Origin: a virus
Taxonomy: Duplodnaviria > Caudoviricetes
Reading direction: 5' to 3' (one strand)
DNA length: 56,108 bases
Virus record (IMG/VR): IMGVR_UViG_3300047560_001264
Coordinates: 1 to 56,108 of that record
A program made the position numbers and the translations under genes. The notes beneath the pieces were generated by a model. The model was given only the letters and a program-made list of their open reading frames with translations. It made no database searches and was not told the origin of the DNA. Shown here one piece after another: positions 3,926 through 39,943 of the stretch; within the stretch, counting starts at the first letter, position 1, and each line of letters begins with the position of its first letter.

Positions 3926-15582
<11,657 letters not shown>

Positions 15583-15583
<1 letters not shown>

Positions 15584-31172: not shown

Positions 31173-31642
31173 AACTAAAGTTAAAAGAAGCGTACATGCA
31201 AACCGCGGAGACATTCGCGGAACTAAGCTACGCACGTAGATTACACGTTGGCGCCATCATTGTAAAAGATGATAGGATTATTTCAATCGGTTATAACGGC
31301 ATGCCTGCGGGCTGGGATAACAACTGTGAGTACGAAGAAGTTTATTCACGTCAACTGGCACCAGGTGACGATTACGAAACTGTACACACAGGTAACCTAA
31401 AAACAAGACCGGAGGTCTTACATGCTGAAACAAATGCTATCGCAAAACTGGCTAAAAGTACTGAGTCTGGTCTCAATGCTAGTATCTTTATTACTCATAG
31501 CCCTTGCTTGGATTGTGCCAAGCTCATTTATCAAAGCGGGATTAATTCTGTCTATTACCGTAACGCTTACCGCAGCGAAGATGGAATACATTTCCTCAAA
31601 CAGTCGGGAATAAAAGTGGAACAGATAGAAAAGGGGCTCTAA
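31169..31642 (+). CDS. dCMP deaminase
   Basis: VGAIIVKD.RIIS.GYNG.P, HAE.NAI and PC.DC Zn-binding motifs; GTG start. Confidence 0.92.
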   Translation: MKLKLKEAYMQTAETFAELSYARRLHVGAIIVKDDRIISIGYNGMPAGWDNNCEYEEVYSRQLAPGDDYETVHTGNLKTRPEVLHAETNAIAKLAKSTESGLNASIFITHSPCLDCAKLIYQSGINSVYYRNAYRSEDGIHFLKQSGIKVEQIEKGL

Positions 31643-31653
31643 GCCCCTTTTTT
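31629..31653. terminator. Bidirectional intrinsic terminator
   Basis: AAAAGGGGCT-CTA-AGCCCCTTTTTT between convergent dCMP deaminase and phoH. Confidence 0.85.
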
Positions 31654-32368
31654 ATGAATCACCGTAGATCGATAATATCTCCTTAACTGCATTGTGACGT
31701 TCAATATCTCTATGATCAAACTCCACAATGTCAATATATTTTAATTGCTTTCCGGCAAGTAGGTTACAGAAATCAATCAATCCATTGTCATTTAATCTGT
31801 CAGCCTGAGCCAAGTCACCTGTTACTACCATTTTGGATCCTTCGCCAAGTCGTGTCAGTAACATCTTCATCTGATTAACTGTTGTATTTTGACATTCGTC
31901 CGCAATAATGTATGCGTTCTTGAATGTGCGTCCACGCATATATGCCAATGGACTAATTTCAATTACTCCTTCTTCCAACATCTTGGTGATGTCTTTTTGT
32001 TGATAATACTCTAAAAATACGTCAAAAATAGGGCGTGTCCATGGTGCCATCTTTTCATTTAAGTCACCTGGTAAAAATCCTAAATCTTCGTCTACGGAAA
32101 CGGCGGGTCTTGTAACAACTATTTTATCAACAATACCTTCCTGAAATAACTTAATACCGTGCTGAACAGCTAACATCGTTTTACCCGTACCGGCTGGGCC
32201 GATAGCAAATACAATATTAGTATCCTCATCTTGTAGTTTTTGTAAGTATATTTTTTGGTTAGCATTTCGTGCGTGTAACGACACACGTTGCTTTTTTTGT
32301 GGCAGGTATGGTTGAAAATCAATTACCTTAACGTCTGATGTAAAGCGTTTCTTCACTCTTTTTGTCAT
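31652..32368 (-). CDS. phoH: PhoH family ATPase
   Basis: GPAGTGKT, RPAV, LGFLPGDL.EK, PLAYMRGRTF, DECQN, LLTRLGEGSK.VVTGD..Q.D. Confidence 0.95.
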   Translation of the reverse strand: MTKRVKKRFTSDVKVIDFQPYLPQKKQRVSLHARNANQKIYLQKLQDEDTNIVFAIGPAGTGKTMLAVQHGIKLFQEGIVDKIVVTRPAVSVDEDLGFLPGDLNEKMAPWTRPIFDVFLEYYQQKDITKMLEEGVIEISPLAYMRGRTFKNAYIIADECQNTTVNQMKMLLTRLGEGSKMVVTGDLAQADRLNDNGLIDFCNLLAGKQLKYIDIVEFDHRDIERHNAVKEILSIYGDS

Positions 32369-32378
32369 CTAGTTGTTT

Positions 32379-32439
32379 CTCCTACTTTATGGAAAGTAGG
32401 ACATGTAGCGACCGCCTCGATTACTACAGAGGTCCTACA
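32379..32439 (-). ncRNA. Candidate bistable cis-regulatory leader RNA of phoH
   Basis: Perfect 9-bp stem (32380-32388 with 32393-32401) buries the SD; a competing 7-bp pairing (32396-32402 with 32432-32438) frees it; late promoter at 32444-32449. Confidence 0.5.
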
Positions 32440-32527
32440 CATTTATTTACTGTTTTCCCCAAATTATAAAGCTATACGTTATGAATCGAACCCAGCTAAA
32501 TAAGTATATAAGTTTCTGGGACAAATC

Positions 32528-33097
32528 ATGCATCACGATATCATAGATGTTATACGAAATATACAAGATCTATACGAAAACAATAGCAGTCTAGCTATTC
32601 TAAAGGACTTCGAACGAGTTCTTGACGAGATGGACGTATATGTATACGAAAACTGGGAAGATGGCGAATTAGCGTACGGTCCCAAAGTGGATCGCCATTG
32701 GATCAAAGTTGGATTCATGTGGCCTGAGGCAAAGATGCCCAACCCTATTGCTGGTAAACGATTAACAGAATTAGGCTGTAAAGTTACGTACCAAAAATCA
32801 CACTTGGTTGAACCAAGAAAGATTAAGACACAGGAAGATATTCGTCCTGGTACTAAGAAGGGTAGATTAGATCGTAGCCCTATCTGGATTGTTGAAGTAC
32901 AGATGCCTAAGAAAATTGCTTTTGATATCTACAAAGGATACATGAGCAAGATGAAGACTGATTATACACATACTAAGCCAAATAACGAAGGTGCGGAAAC
33001 TCCAGCACCGGCAGCGGCTCCAGCAGCACCGGCAGCACCTGCGGCTCCAGCAGCACCAGCTGGTGGCGGTGGTGGCGCAACTCCAACAGGAATGTAA
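32528..33097 (+). CDS. Hypothetical phage protein with PAAPA low-complexity tail
   Basis: ORF after TAAATA (32497-32502); LKDFERVLDE.DVYV..NW..GEL..GP. Confidence 0.8.
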   Translation: MHHDIIDVIRNIQDLYENNSSLAILKDFERVLDEMDVYVYENWEDGELAYGPKVDRHWIKVGFMWPEAKMPNPIAGKRLTELGCKVTYQKSHLVEPRKIKTQEDIRPGTKKGRLDRSPIWIVEVQMPKKIAFDIYKGYMSKMKTDYTHTKPNNEGAETPAPAAAPAAPAAPAAPAAPAGGGGGATPTGM

Positions 33098-33098
33098 A

Positions 33099-33818
33099 AT
33101 GCCATTAAGAGCTGATGATTTAGAATACATGGTAAAGAAAGTTTTTGAAATTGATAGTTTCAAAAGCAAAATTGGTACTGACGAAGATATCTGCACATTG
33201 AGCTTCACAGTTGACGAAGCAGAACCTGCAAAAGACCTAGTTCACTTTATTGAGATGGGTTTTAGTTTTGTACTTGATGCAGATGCAAGTGCTGGTGAAA
33301 TGGATGATGGCAAATATCGAGTATACGTTGAAATTGAGCGTACACGACATATTGGTGAACAAGTTATGGAAATCATTGAGGGTGTTAAGAAATTAGCAGC
33401 ACTTGATGAAATGCGTTTCCGTTACTTCAAAAGTTTTAAGAGCGAACTAGCAACAGTTTCAAACCTAAGTGCTGCTATTCCAAAGAATAAAGAAGCATAT
33501 AGAATTGCAACTAAAGAACGTGAGATGGATAACGTTGATAACTTCTTTAGTACTAGTTTGGCATCAGATATTAATGTAGTTGATGAGTCAATTACATTTA
33601 AAAAGACATACAGTGGTCCAATCACATTCAATATTATTGATAGTGGTTTACGCAGTAATGTCTATGAGCGAGTTACAGGACCAATTATGATGGAAAGTAG
33701 CAGCATGGCTGAAGTCATGTTCCTCACCAAAGTGATTGGTAACTATAACATAAACAAGATTGGCAACTCATTTGTATTTGAGAATAACGGGTGGGCGGTC
33801 ACATTACAGAGGAAATAA
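33099..33818 (+). CDS. Hypothetical phage protein
   Basis: ATG 33099 directly after the upstream stop; ID.FKSK.G.DEDI..LSF motif. Confidence 0.78.
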   Translation: MPLRADDLEYMVKKVFEIDSFKSKIGTDEDICTLSFTVDEAEPAKDLVHFIEMGFSFVLDADASAGEMDDGKYRVYVEIERTRHIGEQVMEIIEGVKKLAALDEMRFRYFKSFKSELATVSNLSAAIPKNKEAYRIATKEREMDNVDNFFSTSLASDINVVDESITFKKTYSGPITFNIIDSGLRSNVYERVTGPIMMESSSMAEVMFLTKVIGNYNINKIGNSFVFENNGWAVTLQRK

Positions 33819-33820
33819 AA

Positions 33821-34453
33821 ATGGCGGGCGAATTTAAATTTAATTTTACACAAGACATGTTTACAGCGATTATTGGAAAGAATCCATACGCTGATCATTG
33901 GTTTGAAGCACTATGCGAGATTTTGCCAGACTATGATATTGACACACCACACCGTGTTGCAGCATTCTTGGCGCAAACAGCACACGAGAGTGGTGGTTAC
34001 AGAGCGATTAAAGAGAATTTAAATTATCGCGCAGTCACACTACGCAAGATTTTCCCAAAGTATTTCCCAGATGACGCAACAGCAAATATGTACGCTGGAC
34101 ACCCAGAACAAATTGCTAACCGTGTTTATGGTGGTCGTATGGGCAATGGTCCAGAGTCATCAGGTGACGGTTTCAAATATTGTGGTCGTGGTTTAATCCA
34201 ATTAACTGGTAAAGACAACTACACACGTTATGCACAAAGTTTGGAAATTAGCGAAGAAGAAGCTGCTGAACATTTAACAACATTTGAAGGTTGCGTACAA
34301 TCAGCTGCTTGGTTCTGGGAAGCTAACAACCTAAACCAATACGCAGATAACGGCGACATTCTAACAATGACAAAACGTATCAACGGTGGTACAATTGGTC
34401 TAGAAGATCGCAAGAAACATTACGAACATGCATTGCATGTATTAGGCGCTTAA
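33821..34453 (+). CDS. Endolysin, glycoside hydrolase family 19
   Basis: AAFLAQTAHESG, ENLNY, IANRVYG.RMGNG..SGDG.KY.GRGLIQLTG..NY, TKRINGG.IGL.DR. Confidence 0.93.
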   Translation: MAGEFKFNFTQDMFTAIIGKNPYADHWFEALCEILPDYDIDTPHRVAAFLAQTAHESGGYRAIKENLNYRAVTLRKIFPKYFPDDATANMYAGHPEQIANRVYGGRMGNGPESSGDGFKYCGRGLIQLTGKDNYTRYAQSLEISEEEAAEHLTTFEGCVQSAAWFWEANNLNQYADNGDILTMTKRINGGTIGLEDRKKHYEHALHVLGA

Positions 34454-34454
34454 T

Positions 34455-34901
34455 ATGTGGCAAATAATGTGGATGCTAAGTTTATTGCCAGATTTTTTCT
34501 GGCATTTATTAACACTAACTGGTGTTGCAGCAGTATTCGCAGCATTTGTATTAGGTAAGATTCCGTTTGTACAAACATACAAGATCCCATTAAAGTACGG
34601 TGGCATTGCTGCCGTATTATTTGGTATTTGGATGGAAGGTGGTATTGCTAACGAAGCAAAGTGGCAAGCTAGGGTTGCAGAAATGGAAGCCAAAGTTGCA
34701 CAAGCAGAACAAGAATCCAAAGATGCTAACGACAAATTAGATAAAAAGTCAAAGGAAAAAGTAAAAGTTATTCGTGAAAAAGGTCTTGTTATTAAACAAT
34801 ACGTTGATCGTGAAGTTACAAAGTATGATGACTCTTGCAAGATTCCTGCACCAGTAGTTAAGGCACTTAACTCAGCAGCAAAGAATGAGGAACTAAAATG
34901 A
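34455..34901 (+). CDS. Inner-membrane spanin (Rz-like)
   Basis: N-terminal TM segments, coiled coil and a C-terminal Cys; lies between endolysin and lipoprotein. Confidence 0.7.
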   Translation: MWQIMWMLSLLPDFFWHLLTLTGVAAVFAAFVLGKIPFVQTYKIPLKYGGIAAVLFGIWMEGGIANEAKWQARVAEMEAKVAQAEQESKDANDKLDKKSKEKVKVIREKGLVIKQYVDREVTKYDDSCKIPAPVVKALNSAAKNEELK

Positions 34902-35152
34902 GATACTTATTAGTTGTATTATTACTTGCTGGTTGTAGTACCGTAGTTCCAGTTACAGCCAAATTTCCTGCAAAGCCTGCAAATGTTGAAACATGTCCAC
35001 AATTAAGCACAGTCCAAGACGACGTTAAGTTAAGCGAGTTAACAAACACAGTTGCAAAAAACTACGGTGCATATTACGAATGCACTGTTAAGGTTGACAC
35101 TTGGAATGAGTGGTACGAAACACAAAAGAAAATCTTTGAAAACATTAAATGA
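34898..35152 (+). CDS. Outer-membrane spanin lipoprotein (Rz1-like)
   Basis: Lipobox LLAG-C, Pro-rich segment, CPQL...NY..Y.EC. Confidence 0.75.
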   Translation: MRYLLVVLLLAGCSTVVPVTAKFPAKPANVETCPQLSTVQDDVKLSELTNTVAKNYGAYYECTVKVDTWNEWYETQKKIFENIK

Positions 35153-35931
35153 AAGTTCTAGAAGTTTTAGCAGAAGCAAAATTTGATCCAAATGTAGTCG
35201 GATCTGGAATTGTGGTAGCACCACAGATTCCTCCTGCTCCAGCAAAACCAGTTGCAGCACCTAAACCAGCAGCACCTGTTGCACCAGCACCAGTTGCGGC
35301 GCCTGTTAAACAAGCTGTTACAGAACCTACACCGTTTGATCCAAGTACACACAAACCAACATTAATCAGTATTGCAAAAAAGATGGGTATTACTGCAACT
35401 AATGATTTGGCAAACCTACTTGGGCAAGCACAGGTTGAAACCGCAAGTTGGACTAAGGCAGCTGAAAACTTTAACTATACTGACCCAACTAGAATTTACA
35501 AAGTTTTTACAAGTAATTTCCCAACACCGCAACACGCTGCACCATATGTTGGAAACCCCGTAGCTTTGGCTAATAGAGCATTGGCTAACAAGAACGGAAA
35601 CGGTGATGAAGCAAGTGGTGATGGATGGAAATATCGCGGTCGTGGATTTTTACACATTACTGGAAAAGAGCTTTATGCAAAAGCGGGGGCAGCAGTGCAT
35701 CCTGAGAATCCAGGAATTTATGTAACAAACCCATCATTGCTTTCATCAAACCCAGTGGAGGCAGCAAAGGCAGCTATTTGGTACTTCAAATCTAAAGTAG
35801 GCAAAGGTAAGACATCGAAGCAAGCAACAAAGGTAGTAAATCCAGCAGGGTTGAAAACTAAAGAACGTGCTAAAGCGTCTGCACAAATACAAGCGCAACT
35901 AGCACCGCAGAAGAAAACACGAAGAAGTTAA
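35149..35931 (+). CDS. Second GH19 lysozyme-like protein with IP-like leader and Pro/Ala linker
   Basis: LGQAQVET, ENFNY, LANRA..N.NGNGDEASGDGWKYRGRGFLHITG..LY; N-terminus MKVLEVLAEA. Confidence 0.85.
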   Translation: MKVLEVLAEAKFDPNVVGSGIVVAPQIPPAPAKPVAAPKPAAPVAPAPVAAPVKQAVTEPTPFDPSTHKPTLISIAKKMGITATNDLANLLGQAQVETASWTKAAENFNYTDPTRIYKVFTSNFPTPQHAAPYVGNPVALANRALANKNGNGDEASGDGWKYRGRGFLHITGKELYAKAGAAVHPENPGIYVTNPSLLSSNPVEAAKAAIWYFKSKVGKGKTSKQATKVVNPAGLKTKERAKASAQIQAQLAPQKKTRRS

Positions 35932-35959
35932 TAAATACATACATAATTAGGAGCGAATT

Positions 35960-36487
35960 ATGGCAGAAGAAGTCAAAGAAATGAGTGAGAGTGAAAAGAA
36001 GAAAGAAGACTGGATGAATAGTAAATGGCGTCCAGCAATGGGTTGGATGTATATGCTAACCTGTATGACTGACTTTGTTTTATTCCCAATCTTATGGAGT
36101 TTGTTACAAGCAGTAATGCACGTACCACAAATCACACAATGGCAACCATTAACATTACAAGGTGCTGGTTTATTCCACATCGCAATGGGTGCTGTTCTAG
36201 GTATTGCTGCAATGGGCCGTACACAAGAGAAACTAGCGGGCGCAAACAACGGTGGAGCAGGTGGTTCAACACCAGCACCAGGTGGGTTCAGCGCACCAGC
36301 AGGTGGATTTAGTGCGCCATCGTTTGGTAGCCCAGCACCAGTAGCACCATCAGCACCAAGCTTCGGCGGTGGTTTTGGTAGCCCAGCACCATCAGCACCA
36401 AGCTTCGGCGGTGGTTTTGGTGGCGGTATTGCAACAACAGCAAGTGGTAAGAAGATTGTTCCACAAGAAGATCAACCATTACAATAA
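35960..36487 (+). CDS. Holin of the 3TM/GTA-holin type with G/F/P-rich tail
   Basis: W...WRPAMGW.Y...DF...P ... MGAVLG...GRT.EK; located in the lysis cassette; TAAATA at 35932-35937. Confidence 0.78.
   Translation: MAEEVKEMSESEKKKEDWMNSKWRPAMGWMYMLTCMTDFVLFPILWSLLQAVMHVPQITQWQPLTLQGAGLFHIAMGAVLGIAAMGRTQEKLAGANNGGAGGSTPAPGGFSAPAGGFSAPSFGSPAPVAPSAPSFGGGFGSPAPSAPSFGGGFGGGIATTASGKKIVPQEDQPLQ
36343..36421 (+). repeat. Direct repeat, two identical 37-nt copies with 42-nt period, in the holin tail
   Basis: agcaccatcagcaccaagcttcggcggtggttttggt at 36343-36379 and 36385-36421. Confidence 0.9.
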
Positions 36488-37687: not shown

Positions 37688-39943
37688 ATGGTTGAACCTA
37701 GTGATAATTTACAAGTAGTGTTTGAAAAAGCAATTGATACTGCTAAAAAACTGCACCACGAATACTTAACTATTGAGCATTTGCTATTTGCTATGCTCTT
37801 AGAAGATACATTTACTAATACCGTTCAAGGTTATGGTGCAAATGTGTCAAAGTTAAAAGATAATCTTATGGATTACCTCCAGAATAAGTGTAATGAGATC
37901 ACTATCTCTGACGTAGTAGTCAAACCCAAGAAGACACAAAGCGTTGAGCGTGTTCTTAATCGCGCCTTCACACAAGTCTTGTTTAACGGACGCCAACGTA
38001 TTGAGCCAACGGATGTTTTCCTCGCCATGATGGGTGAGAAGCGTAGCTGGGCGCACTACTACATTGCACAAGCAGAAATCGACAAAGATAAATTTGCAGA
38101 CTACCTCAACACTGGTACAGATGGTGAGGAAGAAGGTATTAAAGCACCTGCTGATGCAAGTGATAAAGCACTCAAGTCATTCACAACTGACTTGAATGAT
38201 GCTGTTAAGAAGAATAAAATTGATCCAGTTATTGGCCGTGTAGATGAGTTGGAAAACATTGCATTGAGCTTGGGTCGCAGAAGTAAAAACAACGTAATCC
38301 TTGTTGGTGATCCTGGTGTAGGTAAGACTGCTATAGCAGAAGGACTTGCCTATAATATCGTTAAGGGTGCAGTTCCAGAATTCCTCAAGGATTACACAGT
38401 TTATAACTTGGATATCAGTGCTATGCTTGCTGGGTCTAAGTACCGCGGTGACTTTGAAGAGCGTTTCAAACAAGTTCTCAAAGCACTGAGCAAGAAGGGT
38501 AAGACTGTATTGTTCATCGACGAAGCACACATGATTAGCGGTGCTGGTTCAGCTAACAATAGTGCCAACGACTTGGCTAACATGATGAAACCTGCGTTGT
38601 CCAAGGGCAATATTAAGGTTATTGCAAGCACTACATGGGAAGAATACCGTAAACACTTTGAGAAGGACCGTGCTTTAATGCGCCGCTTCCAACGTATTAC
38701 AGTTGACGAGCCATCACAAGAGATGACTTTGCAGATCCTTAAAGGAATCAAGAAGTATTACGAGAGTCACCATGATGTTAAAATCAAGGACGATGCATTA
38801 CAAGCAGCAATTAAGCTATCTGTCAAATACCAAGCTGATAAGAAGCTTCCAGATAAAGCAATTGACTTGATTGACTTGGCATGTTCACGTTTTAACTTGA
38901 AACTTGCTGATACTCGTGTTGTTTCTGAAGCAGAAATTCAGTATGAACTTGCCAAGGTTGTTAACCTTCCACAGGAACAAGTTGCAGAAACTGAAAGTCA
39001 TAACCTCTCAACACTGCAAGATAAGTTGCAAACTGAAGTTTATGGACAATCAACTGCTCTTACTGAGATTATTGATAAGATCCTAGTAGCACAAGCTGGT
39101 TTGAAACCAGAAAACAAGCCAATTGGTAGCTTTGTATTCATGGGACCAACTGGTACAGGTAAGACTGAGACTGCGAAAGCACTTGCAAAACACTTGGGCA
39201 CTAAGCTCTTGCGTTTTGATATGTCAGAATATCAGGAAAAACACAGCATTTCCAAACTTATTGGTAGCCCACCTGGCTATGTTGGGTTTGAAGATAACGC
39301 TGGTTTGTTGATTACGCAGATCCAAGAATGCCCAAATGCAGTACTATTGTTTGACGAGATTGAAAAGTCACACCCTGATGTTGCAACAGTGTTGCTACAG
39401 ATGATGGATAACGGCTTTATCACTGGTTCAAATGGTAAGCAAGCAGATTGCCGCAACCTAATCCTCATTCTTACTACTAACGCTGGCGCACAATCAGCTG
39501 AGAAGAACAAGATTGGCTTTGGTGAGCAAGAGAAAGAGTATAGCGATGCTGACTTGAAGAAGTTCTTAACTCCAGAATTCCGTAACCGCTTGGATGGTAT
39601 CATTACCTTTAACAAGTTGGGCAAGGAAACAATGGTTAAGATTGTTAACAAGTTCATCGATGAGCTCAAGGAACAAGTCAAAGAGAAGAGTATCCGTATC
39701 AAGATCAATAAGGAAGCAATTGACTGGCTTATTGAGAAGGGCTTTGATGCCAAGATGGGTGCTCGTCCGCTACAACGTGTTATTGACAAGGAAATTAAAC
39801 GTGACCTTGCTAAGATGATGTTGTTTGGTGACTTAAAGAATGGTGGTTGGGCCACTATTACAGTAGATGATGATAAGATCGCTATTGTAGCCAAAAGCAA
39901 GGAACCCAAAGTTCCATTGCTAGCTACTGAAAATGCAGCTTAA
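37688..39943 (+). CDS. clpA: ATP-dependent Clp protease ATPase subunit ClpA
   Basis: HEYLTIEHLL N-domain; two AAA+ modules (GDPGVGKT, GPTGTGKT); AGSKYRGDFEER; IGF ClpP-docking loop; MGARPL; no ClpB middle domain. Confidence 0.93.
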   Translation: MVEPSDNLQVVFEKAIDTAKKLHHEYLTIEHLLFAMLLEDTFTNTVQGYGANVSKLKDNLMDYLQNKCNEITISDVVVKPKKTQSVERVLNRAFTQVLFNGRQRIEPTDVFLAMMGEKRSWAHYYIAQAEIDKDKFADYLNTGTDGEEEGIKAPADASDKALKSFTTDLNDAVKKNKIDPVIGRVDELENIALSLGRRSKNNVILVGDPGVGKTAIAEGLAYNIVKGAVPEFLKDYTVYNLDISAMLAGSKYRGDFEERFKQVLKALSKKGKTVLFIDEAHMISGAGSANNSANDLANMMKPALSKGNIKVIASTTWEEYRKHFEKDRALMRRFQRITVDEPSQEMTLQILKGIKKYYESHHDVKIKDDALQAAIKLSVKYQADKKLPDKAIDLIDLACSRFNLKLADTRVVSEAEIQYELAKVVNLPQEQVAETESHNLSTLQDKLQTEVYGQSTALTEIIDKILVAQAGLKPENKPIGSFVFMGPTGTGKTETAKALAKHLGTKLLRFDMSEYQEKHSISKLIGSPPGYVGFEDNAGLLITQIQECPNAVLLFDEIEKSHPDVATVLLQMMDNGFITGSNGKQADCRNLILILTTNAGAQSAEKNKIGFGEQEKEYSDADLKKFLTPEFRNRLDGIITFNKLGKETMVKIVNKFIDELKEQVKEKSIRIKINKEAIDWLIEKGFDAKMGARPLQRVIDKEIKRDLAKMMLFGDLKNGGWATITVDDDKIAIVAKSKEPKVPLLATENAA

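Follow-up and report, generated by a model that had tools for sequence, protein, structure and literature searches.

A conserved RNA leader with two predicted, mutually exclusive folds precedes phoH in freshwater jumbo phages and may limit its translation

The phoH locus

The stretch of DNA analysed here (hereafter the window; 56,108 nucleotides, the IMG/VR virus record IMGVR_UViG_3300047560_001264) comes from an uncultured freshwater jumbo phage, is 96% coding and carries almost all of its genes on the plus strand. Among its very few minus-strand genes is phoH (31652-32368, start codon at 32368-32366), an open reading frame of 238 amino acids that matches PHROG 170 (PhoH-like, E 1.4e-77) and carries the precomputed Pfam assignment PF02562. 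The phoH gene is one of the most widespread host-like genes carried by phages and serves as a marker of aquatic phage diversity, and we know of no established role for it during infection. A DNA search found no close cultured relatives of the window phage, and the nearest cultured phages by PhoH protein are PA5oct (55%) and Phosso and Atu_ph07 (50-52%). The uncultured clade that carries the leader described below is abundant in freshwater.

The neighbour 5' of phoH is a divergent gene for a virion structural protein (32528-33097, plus strand), and the 159-nt region between the two genes holds two divergent TAAATA boxes. Directly 3' of phoH, a terminator scan placed a terminator-like hairpin (31629-31651, minus strand) that is common to phoH and the convergent dCMP deaminase gene. 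With this hairpin behind it and a divergent neighbour upstream, phoH is therefore a single-gene (monocistronic) unit. The hairpin itself consists of a perfect 10 bp with runs of A and U at its flanks and looks like a bidirectional terminator.

Several other features of the window were recorded alongside. The virion structural protein gene has a Pro-Ala repeat at its end and shares about 100 nt with the next open reading frame (32991-33818); contigs from public runs break, carry indels or diverge from the window around 33003-33075, in the region 32991-33097, which suggests a hypervariable repeat. The lysis cassette at 33791-36487 has a pair of paralogous endolysin genes of the GH19/chitinase-like type (33791-34453 and 35149-35931), together with a holin-like gene that has its own TAAATA, a signal-peptide protein and an Rz-like spanin. 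Further, a single open reading frame of 3874 aa spans 3959-15583, with two TAAATA boxes before it (3914 and 3954) and frames of 946 and 1290 aa after it, all three presumably giant structural proteins, and 37688-39943 encodes a phage Lon-like ATP-dependent protease (PHROG 4871, E 4.8e-250).

Promoter and transcript start

The minus-strand TAAATA that serves phoH, an element resembling T4-type late promoters, lies at 32444-32449, 5 nt upstream of the leader. TAAATA precedes the leader in 75 of 81 related loci and TAAGTA in the other 6, always 4-5 nt 5' of GTAGG. Its divergent counterpart (32497-32502, plus strand) is a promoter-like site for the virion structural protein gene, and the reverse complement of that site is conserved in relatives at positions -64 to -54. 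Upstream of the phoH TAAATA, at a distance of 15 nt, 67 distinct upstream sequences share a conserved box, TTTA(C/T)(T/A) (32465-32470, minus strand; positions -32 to -27). By eye, this box was not seen at the other TAAATA sites of the window.

On the plus strand of the window, 13 of the 20 TAAATA sites fall within 60 nt upstream of the start of an open reading frame, against 1.0 expected, and the genes behind the TAAATA sites include tail-fibre-like, virion structural and holin genes. Between TAAATA and AUG, phoH has 75 nt, compared with 0-39 nt in the 13 further genes of the window that are associated with a TAAATA. The string (T)ATAAATA, followed by 5 nt and then a G, also precedes phoH in PA5oct, Atu_ph07 and Phosso. 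Additionally, a gp55-like homologue was found in three of three related large genomes (E 1e-55 to 1e-62, 40-44% identity to the Atu_ph07 protein). The available text of PMC6102473 names the Atu_ph07 protein a 'sigma factor for late transcription', and that of PMC3014915 states the T4 late-promoter motif TATAAATA and the role of gp55. With a motif at about -10 that is enriched before late genes of the window, and a gp55-like sigma factor in related genomes, we predict a T4-type late promoter for phoH.

The predicted transcription start is the G at 32438 (minus strand), which together with the preceding T is invariant in the 67 distinct sequences. It is the sixth base after TAAATA, which we take to be the geometry of T4 late promoters. 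A first-pass annotation of this DNA had placed a late promoter at 32444-32449 and the 5' end near 32438; the TAAATA is indeed at 32449-32444, and conservation and geometry both point to the same start. The box at 32465-32470 could be a -35-like element or an activator site through which phoH would be transcribed in a second way. The contigs from three metatranscriptome runs, compared over 31400-33300, end at 32350/32372 and restart at 32523, and a contig from a DNA run spans the gap; this comparison is one of contigs, with real cover from one study, and is uninformative on the start site or on expression.

Two folds of the leader

The leader RNA, taken as the minus strand from 32438 to 32366, is identical to the sequence given in the first-pass annotation. 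Three segments containing GUAG and two containing CUAC make two folds possible, and the elements involved, all on the minus strand, follow one another closely. Element 1, GUAGGAC(C) (32431-32438), is the 5' strand both of a long 5' hairpin in the open (ON) fold and of helix A in the closed (OFF) fold. An inner hairpin of the ON fold, UGUAGU...GCUACA with a variable apical loop (32404-32428), covers the region in which GGUC-G-CUAC (32413-32405) provides the 3' strand of helix A in the OFF fold. Element 2, GUCCUAC (32396-32402), is the shared strand, with element 1 as its predicted partner in the ON fold and, as UCCUACUUU (32401-32393), the SD region as its partner in the OFF fold. Element 3, AAAGUAGGA (32380-32388), is the 3' arm of the SD-hiding hairpin, helix B, and the SD is the GGAG at 32382-32379.

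In the ON fold, GUAGGAC (32438-32432) pairs with GUCCUAC (32402-32396) around UGUAGU/GCUACA and AUCG/CGGU. This is the minimum-free-energy fold of the leader in the window (-24.0 kcal/mol, z -3.9), and 0 of 200 shuffles were as stable. In the OFF fold, GUAG-GACC pairs with GGUC-G-CUAC to give helix A, and UCCUACUUU and AAAGUAGGA form a perfect 9-bp hairpin, helix B, which covers the SD and is worth -9.9 kcal/mol by itself; with the SD helix enforced, no fold is more stable than this one, at -22.3 kcal/mol. The best fold free of any pair of the minimum-free-energy fold (within 1 register) also reaches -22.3 kcal/mol, compared with -10.7 +/- 2.1 kcal/mol in dinucleotide shuffles. The z-score of this second, pair-disjoint fold is -5.4, with 0 of 300 dinucleotide shuffles as stable, and three relatives gave values from -3.9 to -5.9.

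The ON and OFF folds cannot coexist, because both use the strand 32401-32396. Folding calculations thus describe a 70-nt leader with two exclusive, near-isoenergetic folds, one of which would bury the SD. Both folds and their mutual exclusion had been proposed in the first-pass annotation, and they withstood the present analysis well: the OFF pairings are all recovered once the SD helix is enforced, the shared strand makes the two states exclusive, and a check of alternative structures and barriers placed the second fold beyond all 300 shuffles with a calculated ON/OFF barrier of about 14.5-16 kcal/mol. The proposed ON pairings are likewise those of the minimum-free-energy fold. The annotation had, however, taken the SD to be free in that state, and in the window it is partly engaged, with GGAGA pairing weakly with UUUCC (5 bp).

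Conservation and specificity across relatives

A PhoH-anchored search of viral contigs yielded 419 relatives, and the 80 best of them (84-94% identity) were taken; the leader stands before phoH in all 81 of these PhoH-anchored loci (the 80 and the window), in 55 distinct versions. A second PhoH-anchored set was queried from a divergent member, and 20 new or divergent loci were searched with a covariance model. Here, the leader was present in 18 of the 18 loci having upstream sequence, and in the remaining two (L119 and L156) phoH lies at the contig edge. A third set came from a pattern scan, in which at least 118 stretches led to 80 more loci; the pattern fixes parts of the inner hairpin, and the positions so fixed are invariant by construction in this set (80 of the 240 loci). 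Of the 240 loci, which overlap in contigs and are not a contig count, 236 matched the search expression and 235 were parsed. The non-matching loci are L119 and L156, together with L037 and L110, which are one contig whose leader is present as a CUAU variant outside the search expression. The alignment used below (A2) consists of the 94 distinct leaders from the three locus sets.

The leader is tied to a single gene. Of the 235 parsed copies, 228 have a PhoH Walker A motif downstream and 7 are cut by contig ends, and every leader copy with enough downstream sequence precedes phoH. With the covariance model, a single copy is detected in the window (E 4e-18; the runner-up has E 0.21) and a single copy in each of five out of five large related genomes, two of which are 94% complete or more and where other matches have E 0.17 or worse; no further copies and no regulon were found in the window or these five genomes. 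As for partners in trans, no other occurrence of leader 12-mers was found on either strand of the window, which represents only about 15% of a genome. A leader peptide was considered as well and dropped, as an upstream ATG frame exists in the window only, and the relatives, inspected by eye, have GTG-TAG or loop indels that break the frame.

The first-pass annotation had not recognised the leader as a named RNA family. Rfam (release 15) agrees with this, with no match on the leader up to E 10 when 31600-33200 was scanned with an E-value threshold, and 0 matches in a gathering-threshold scan of the window and three relatives. Full-text literature searches, with the papers judged mainly by title and abstract, found no published description of such a phoH leader. 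Upstream of phoH in PA5oct, Phosso and Atu_ph07, the leader model has no match (best E 0.47). The fold of the PA5oct phoH leader is unremarkable (z -1.2), and 19 further PA5oct-like loci have TAAATA and sometimes a short 5' hairpin, without a leader of the window type; 5'-terminal hairpins may be general among the late mRNAs of these phages. The leader described here is phoH-specific, strongly conserved and an RNA family new to Rfam.

Selection on both folds

Essentially every pair of the open hairpin is kept in the 94 distinct sequences of A2, and compensatory changes occur at 5:45 (G-C to A-U, 2 sequences) and at 6:44 (A-U to G-C, 2 sequences). A sub-clade closes the internal loop by new pairs at 8:42 (8 sequences), 10:41 (12 sequences) and 11:39 (C-G, 13 sequences). 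Changes in element 1 weaken helix A/B yet keep the open hairpin, which argues that the open hairpin itself is selected.

In helix B, 98.0% of the cells are paired across the 94 sequences; six sequences carry a compensatory change from U-A to A-U at 50:69, and one carries such a change at 52:67. Between its arms, the loop varies from 3 to 11 letters, and the flanking pairs are nonetheless kept. The GGAG is preceded by GUA in 88 of 94 sequences and by GUG in 5 more, a wobble-compatible change that still pairs with U47; none of the window's other genes has a GUA before its SD. Helix A, although 98.5% paired, is almost invariant, its sole compensatory event being a C-G to A-U change in L233. Three sequences break it at 5:32, and in two of these (L014 and L017) the open hairpin is compensated.

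The diversity of the leader is low: independent double changes number about 2 in each helix, helix A having only 1, and shuffle controls for covariation can be inflated by relatedness. Read with this in mind, the alignment suggests that the 5' hairpin and the SD hairpin, which have one strand in common, are each kept by wobble-compatible and a few compensatory changes. The first-pass annotation had staked its two folds on the conservation of the alternative pairings in relatives, and in the 94 sequences both are kept. The apical loop (4-7 nt) is variable in sequence, the stem bases GUAGU...AUC...GGCGGUC.CUAC are almost invariant and the flanks diverge, and nearly every conserved base appears to be explained by pairing in one fold or the other. 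G.U pairs are also many (for example, U.G at 2:48 in 23 of 94 sequences) and would be mismatches on the opposite strand; the structure therefore belongs to the phoH-sense RNA.

These patterns bear on three other readings of the leader. The simplest is that its parts are static, with the 5' hairpin only shielding the mRNA end from decay and the complementarity to the SD damping translation constitutively. The 5' end of the mRNA is paired in both folds, as such shielding would have it, and the phoH leaders of the jumbo relatives PA5oct (L170, 1018-1040) and L300 (uncultured) also start with hairpins at the predicted +1, short ones unrelated to that of the window. A stabiliser, however, needs no match between element 2 and the SD flank, and a damper needs none between element 1 and element 2, and both matches are kept with compensation of their own. 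Further, the stability of the second fold exceeds that of shuffled sequences, and the primary sequence of the stems is conserved far beyond the needs of a generic hairpin. We consider purely static elements unlikely.

In a metabolite riboswitch, the 43-nt 5' domain would be an aptamer and a ligand would stabilise one of the folds, and gating by a ligand was among the first-pass proposals. The leader does have sequestor and anti-sequestor pairings that exclude each other, as in the expression platform of a translational riboswitch, and the element is specific to phoH. Conserved unpaired pocket bases, on the other hand, are absent: the positions of a would-be pocket are not conserved as unpaired, since the apical loop differs among relatives in both length and sequence and, in the sub-clade, pairs take the place of the internal loop CUC/A. 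Conservation resides in stem bases and not in junction bases, and Rfam holds no match. Regulation by a metabolite is accordingly improbable in our view.

An attenuator, in which the 5' hairpin and a U run would stop RNA polymerase about 50 nt after the start, has in its favour the 3-6 U that follow the hairpin in most relatives. The leader was nevertheless not called by the terminator scan of the window, and a terminator in the 'open' fold would silence expression in both states. In the sub-clade, AU or CC takes the place of the U run and the partner bases before the SD change in step, and the U run thus serves helix B. We regard termination in the leader as very improbable.

Energetics and folding order

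Energies were calculated for 51 relatives, with four rows left out (L024, L038, L067 and L073) in which the enforced pairs were non-canonical or misaligned. At 37 C, the OFF-minus-ON gap is -1.66 +/- 1.69 kcal/mol. The fold with the hidden SD is the predicted ground state in 42 of the 51 relatives and the ON fold is favoured in 9. The predicted share of the ON fold has a median of 0.06 and ranges from near 0 to about 0.9 across relatives; the window, with a share of 0.78, favours ON.

Between 10 and 45 C, the gap moves only from -1.98 to -1.61 kcal/mol, a change of about 0.4 kcal/mol, with 8-10 of the 51 sequences favouring ON throughout. In principle, two folds close in energy could respond to temperature, and the first-pass annotation had listed temperature among its possible gates; with both folds similar in pair number and a balance that is nearly flat in silico, an RNA thermometer has hardly any probability left. 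Overall, the evidence weighs against an aptamer of the classical type, an RNA thermometer, a terminator and a site acting at the DNA level.

The order of folding is calculated to be uniform across the relatives, as the nascent prefix of 36-39 nt adopts helix A in all 55 of the 55 sequences folded. Barriers and rates were derived from nearest-neighbour energies and a direct-path heuristic, which give 10.6 +/- 0.8 kcal/mol for the direct path by which helix A becomes the open hairpin within a transcript of 45 nt, and the higher value stated above between the complete folds.

Proposed mechanism

We propose that the leader is a cis-acting, two-state translational throttle, or dosage limiter, for PhoH that is set co-transcriptionally, and on the basis of the folding models we give this account about even chances of being correct. 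That the leader limits the amount of PhoH in one way or another is probable. In the open fold, element 1 would pair with element 2 in the long 5'-terminal hairpin and leave the SD largely free. In the closed fold, element 1 would instead pair with GGUC-G-CUAC in helix A, and element 2 would be released to clamp the SD in helix B with about -10 kcal/mol. The folding calculations suggest that helix A is the first to form during RNA synthesis. Helix B should then usually close before the slower rearrangement from helix A to the open hairpin, because element 3 trails element 2 by only 3-11 nt. Most transcripts would therefore be born translationally silent and a minority would be locked open, and the high barrier would keep the open and closed states apart. 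The open fraction would be set by the time between the synthesis of element 2 and that of element 3, that is, by elongation rate and pausing, or alternatively by a factor that melts helix A or helix B, and a dedicated small-molecule ligand would be unnecessary. Of the translational switch envisaged in the first-pass annotation, the conserved, phoH-specific leader with two folds and a buried SD stands; its predicted default in most relatives is the closed fold and not the open one.

The main rival to this throttle is a switch gated by a factor, in which the same two folds exist and a protein chooses between them by binding or unwinding the inner hairpin or helix A. Candidates would be PhoH itself, which is predicted to be an RNA-dependent NTPase, some other RNA-binding protein of the phage, or a ribonuclease removing element 1. 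The near invariance of the stem bases next to diverging flanks would suit such a binding site, an activator would make sense where the closed fold is the predicted default, and a barrier of about 15 kcal/mol favours assisted refolding. Yet the two or three alternative pairing partners of these bases already account for their invariance, and there is no second copy of the motif in the window or the five related genomes that would mark a regulon. We rate this version as not likely, although ahead of the other alternatives, with the static reading next.

A more far-reaching reading, which we mention as a doubtful idea ranking below both of these, is that the leader is no passive throttle and acts as a kinetic sensor of polymerase speed and hence of the supply of NTPs (phosphate or energy) in the infected cell, or that the NTPase PhoH unwinds the closed fold. 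If either holds, synthesis of PhoH would be largely confined to times of nucleotide shortage or of PhoH activity, and the commonest 'auxiliary' gene of phages would for the first time have a regulatory logic linked to its function.

The presence of a conserved, phoH-specific leader that can hide the SD points to strong selection on how much PhoH is made, or when, within a clade of freshwater jumbo phages that is abundant. At 70 nt, the leader is a small and tractable RNA for finding which signal matters. It is further a natural example of a short RNA in which nearly all conserved bases are explained by pairing in two exclusive folds, and can as such be useful for studies of co-transcriptional folding and for the annotation of alternative structures.

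Comparison with known systems

The closest parallels by promoter type are the T4 genes e, soc, 49 and I-TevI, for which the available text of PMC3014915 describes an SD hidden in a hairpin and a late promoter inside its 5' arm, such that late transcripts lack the 5' arm and are translated. As far as that text goes, the phoH leader resembles these genes in its T4-like late transcription, in a local helix that buries the SD near a late promoter of the TATAAATA type and in the restriction of translation. It differs from them in that the phoH TAAATA (32449-32444) lies upstream of both arms as well as of a third element that competes for pairing. From the predicted start to the 5' arm of helix B (32401-32393), the distance downstream is 37 nt. 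Read-through of the T4 type also has no source here, as the upstream neighbour of phoH is divergent and no co-directional gene lies upstream; the choice of fold would therefore be made within one transcript species.

Translational riboswitch platforms share with the phoH leader the competition of an SD sequestor and an anti-sequestor for one strand, whereas the leader is without a conserved aptamer core or an Rfam family. In the enterobacterial pyrC and pyrD genes, the extreme 5' nucleotides of the mRNA form a hairpin that hides the SD, and the CTP/GTP ratio at initiation is the signal. There, as predicted for the phoH leader, the extreme 5' nucleotides decide whether an SD-hiding hairpin forms; in pyrC and pyrD, however, these nucleotides build the sequestering hairpin itself, and nothing seen for the phoH leader points to variable start sites.

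For type I toxin mRNAs such as aapA3 of Helicobacter, the available text of PMC6733600 describes successive local hairpins that form co-transcriptionally and sequester the SD. The phoH leader is similar to aapA3, as described there, in the sequestration of the SD by metastable 5' structures, and dissimilar in that no antisense RNA, 3' processing or toxin is involved.

[quoted passage not shown] The MS2 element is part of a cloverleaf in an RNA genome and has no sequence similarity to the phoH leader, which is a 70-nt piece of DNA-phage mRNA. In MS2, moreover, the transient hairpin delays the inhibitory fold and so opens a brief window for translation, whereas helix A of the phoH leader is predicted to favour the inhibitory fold. 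In MS2, so far as that account extends, an upstream complement pairs with the SD at equilibrium and an alternative 5'-proximal hairpin involving that complement decides on access to the SD, and the phoH leader is predicted to work alike. In both, the order of folding during synthesis would matter, and the purpose would be a low copy number of the protein.
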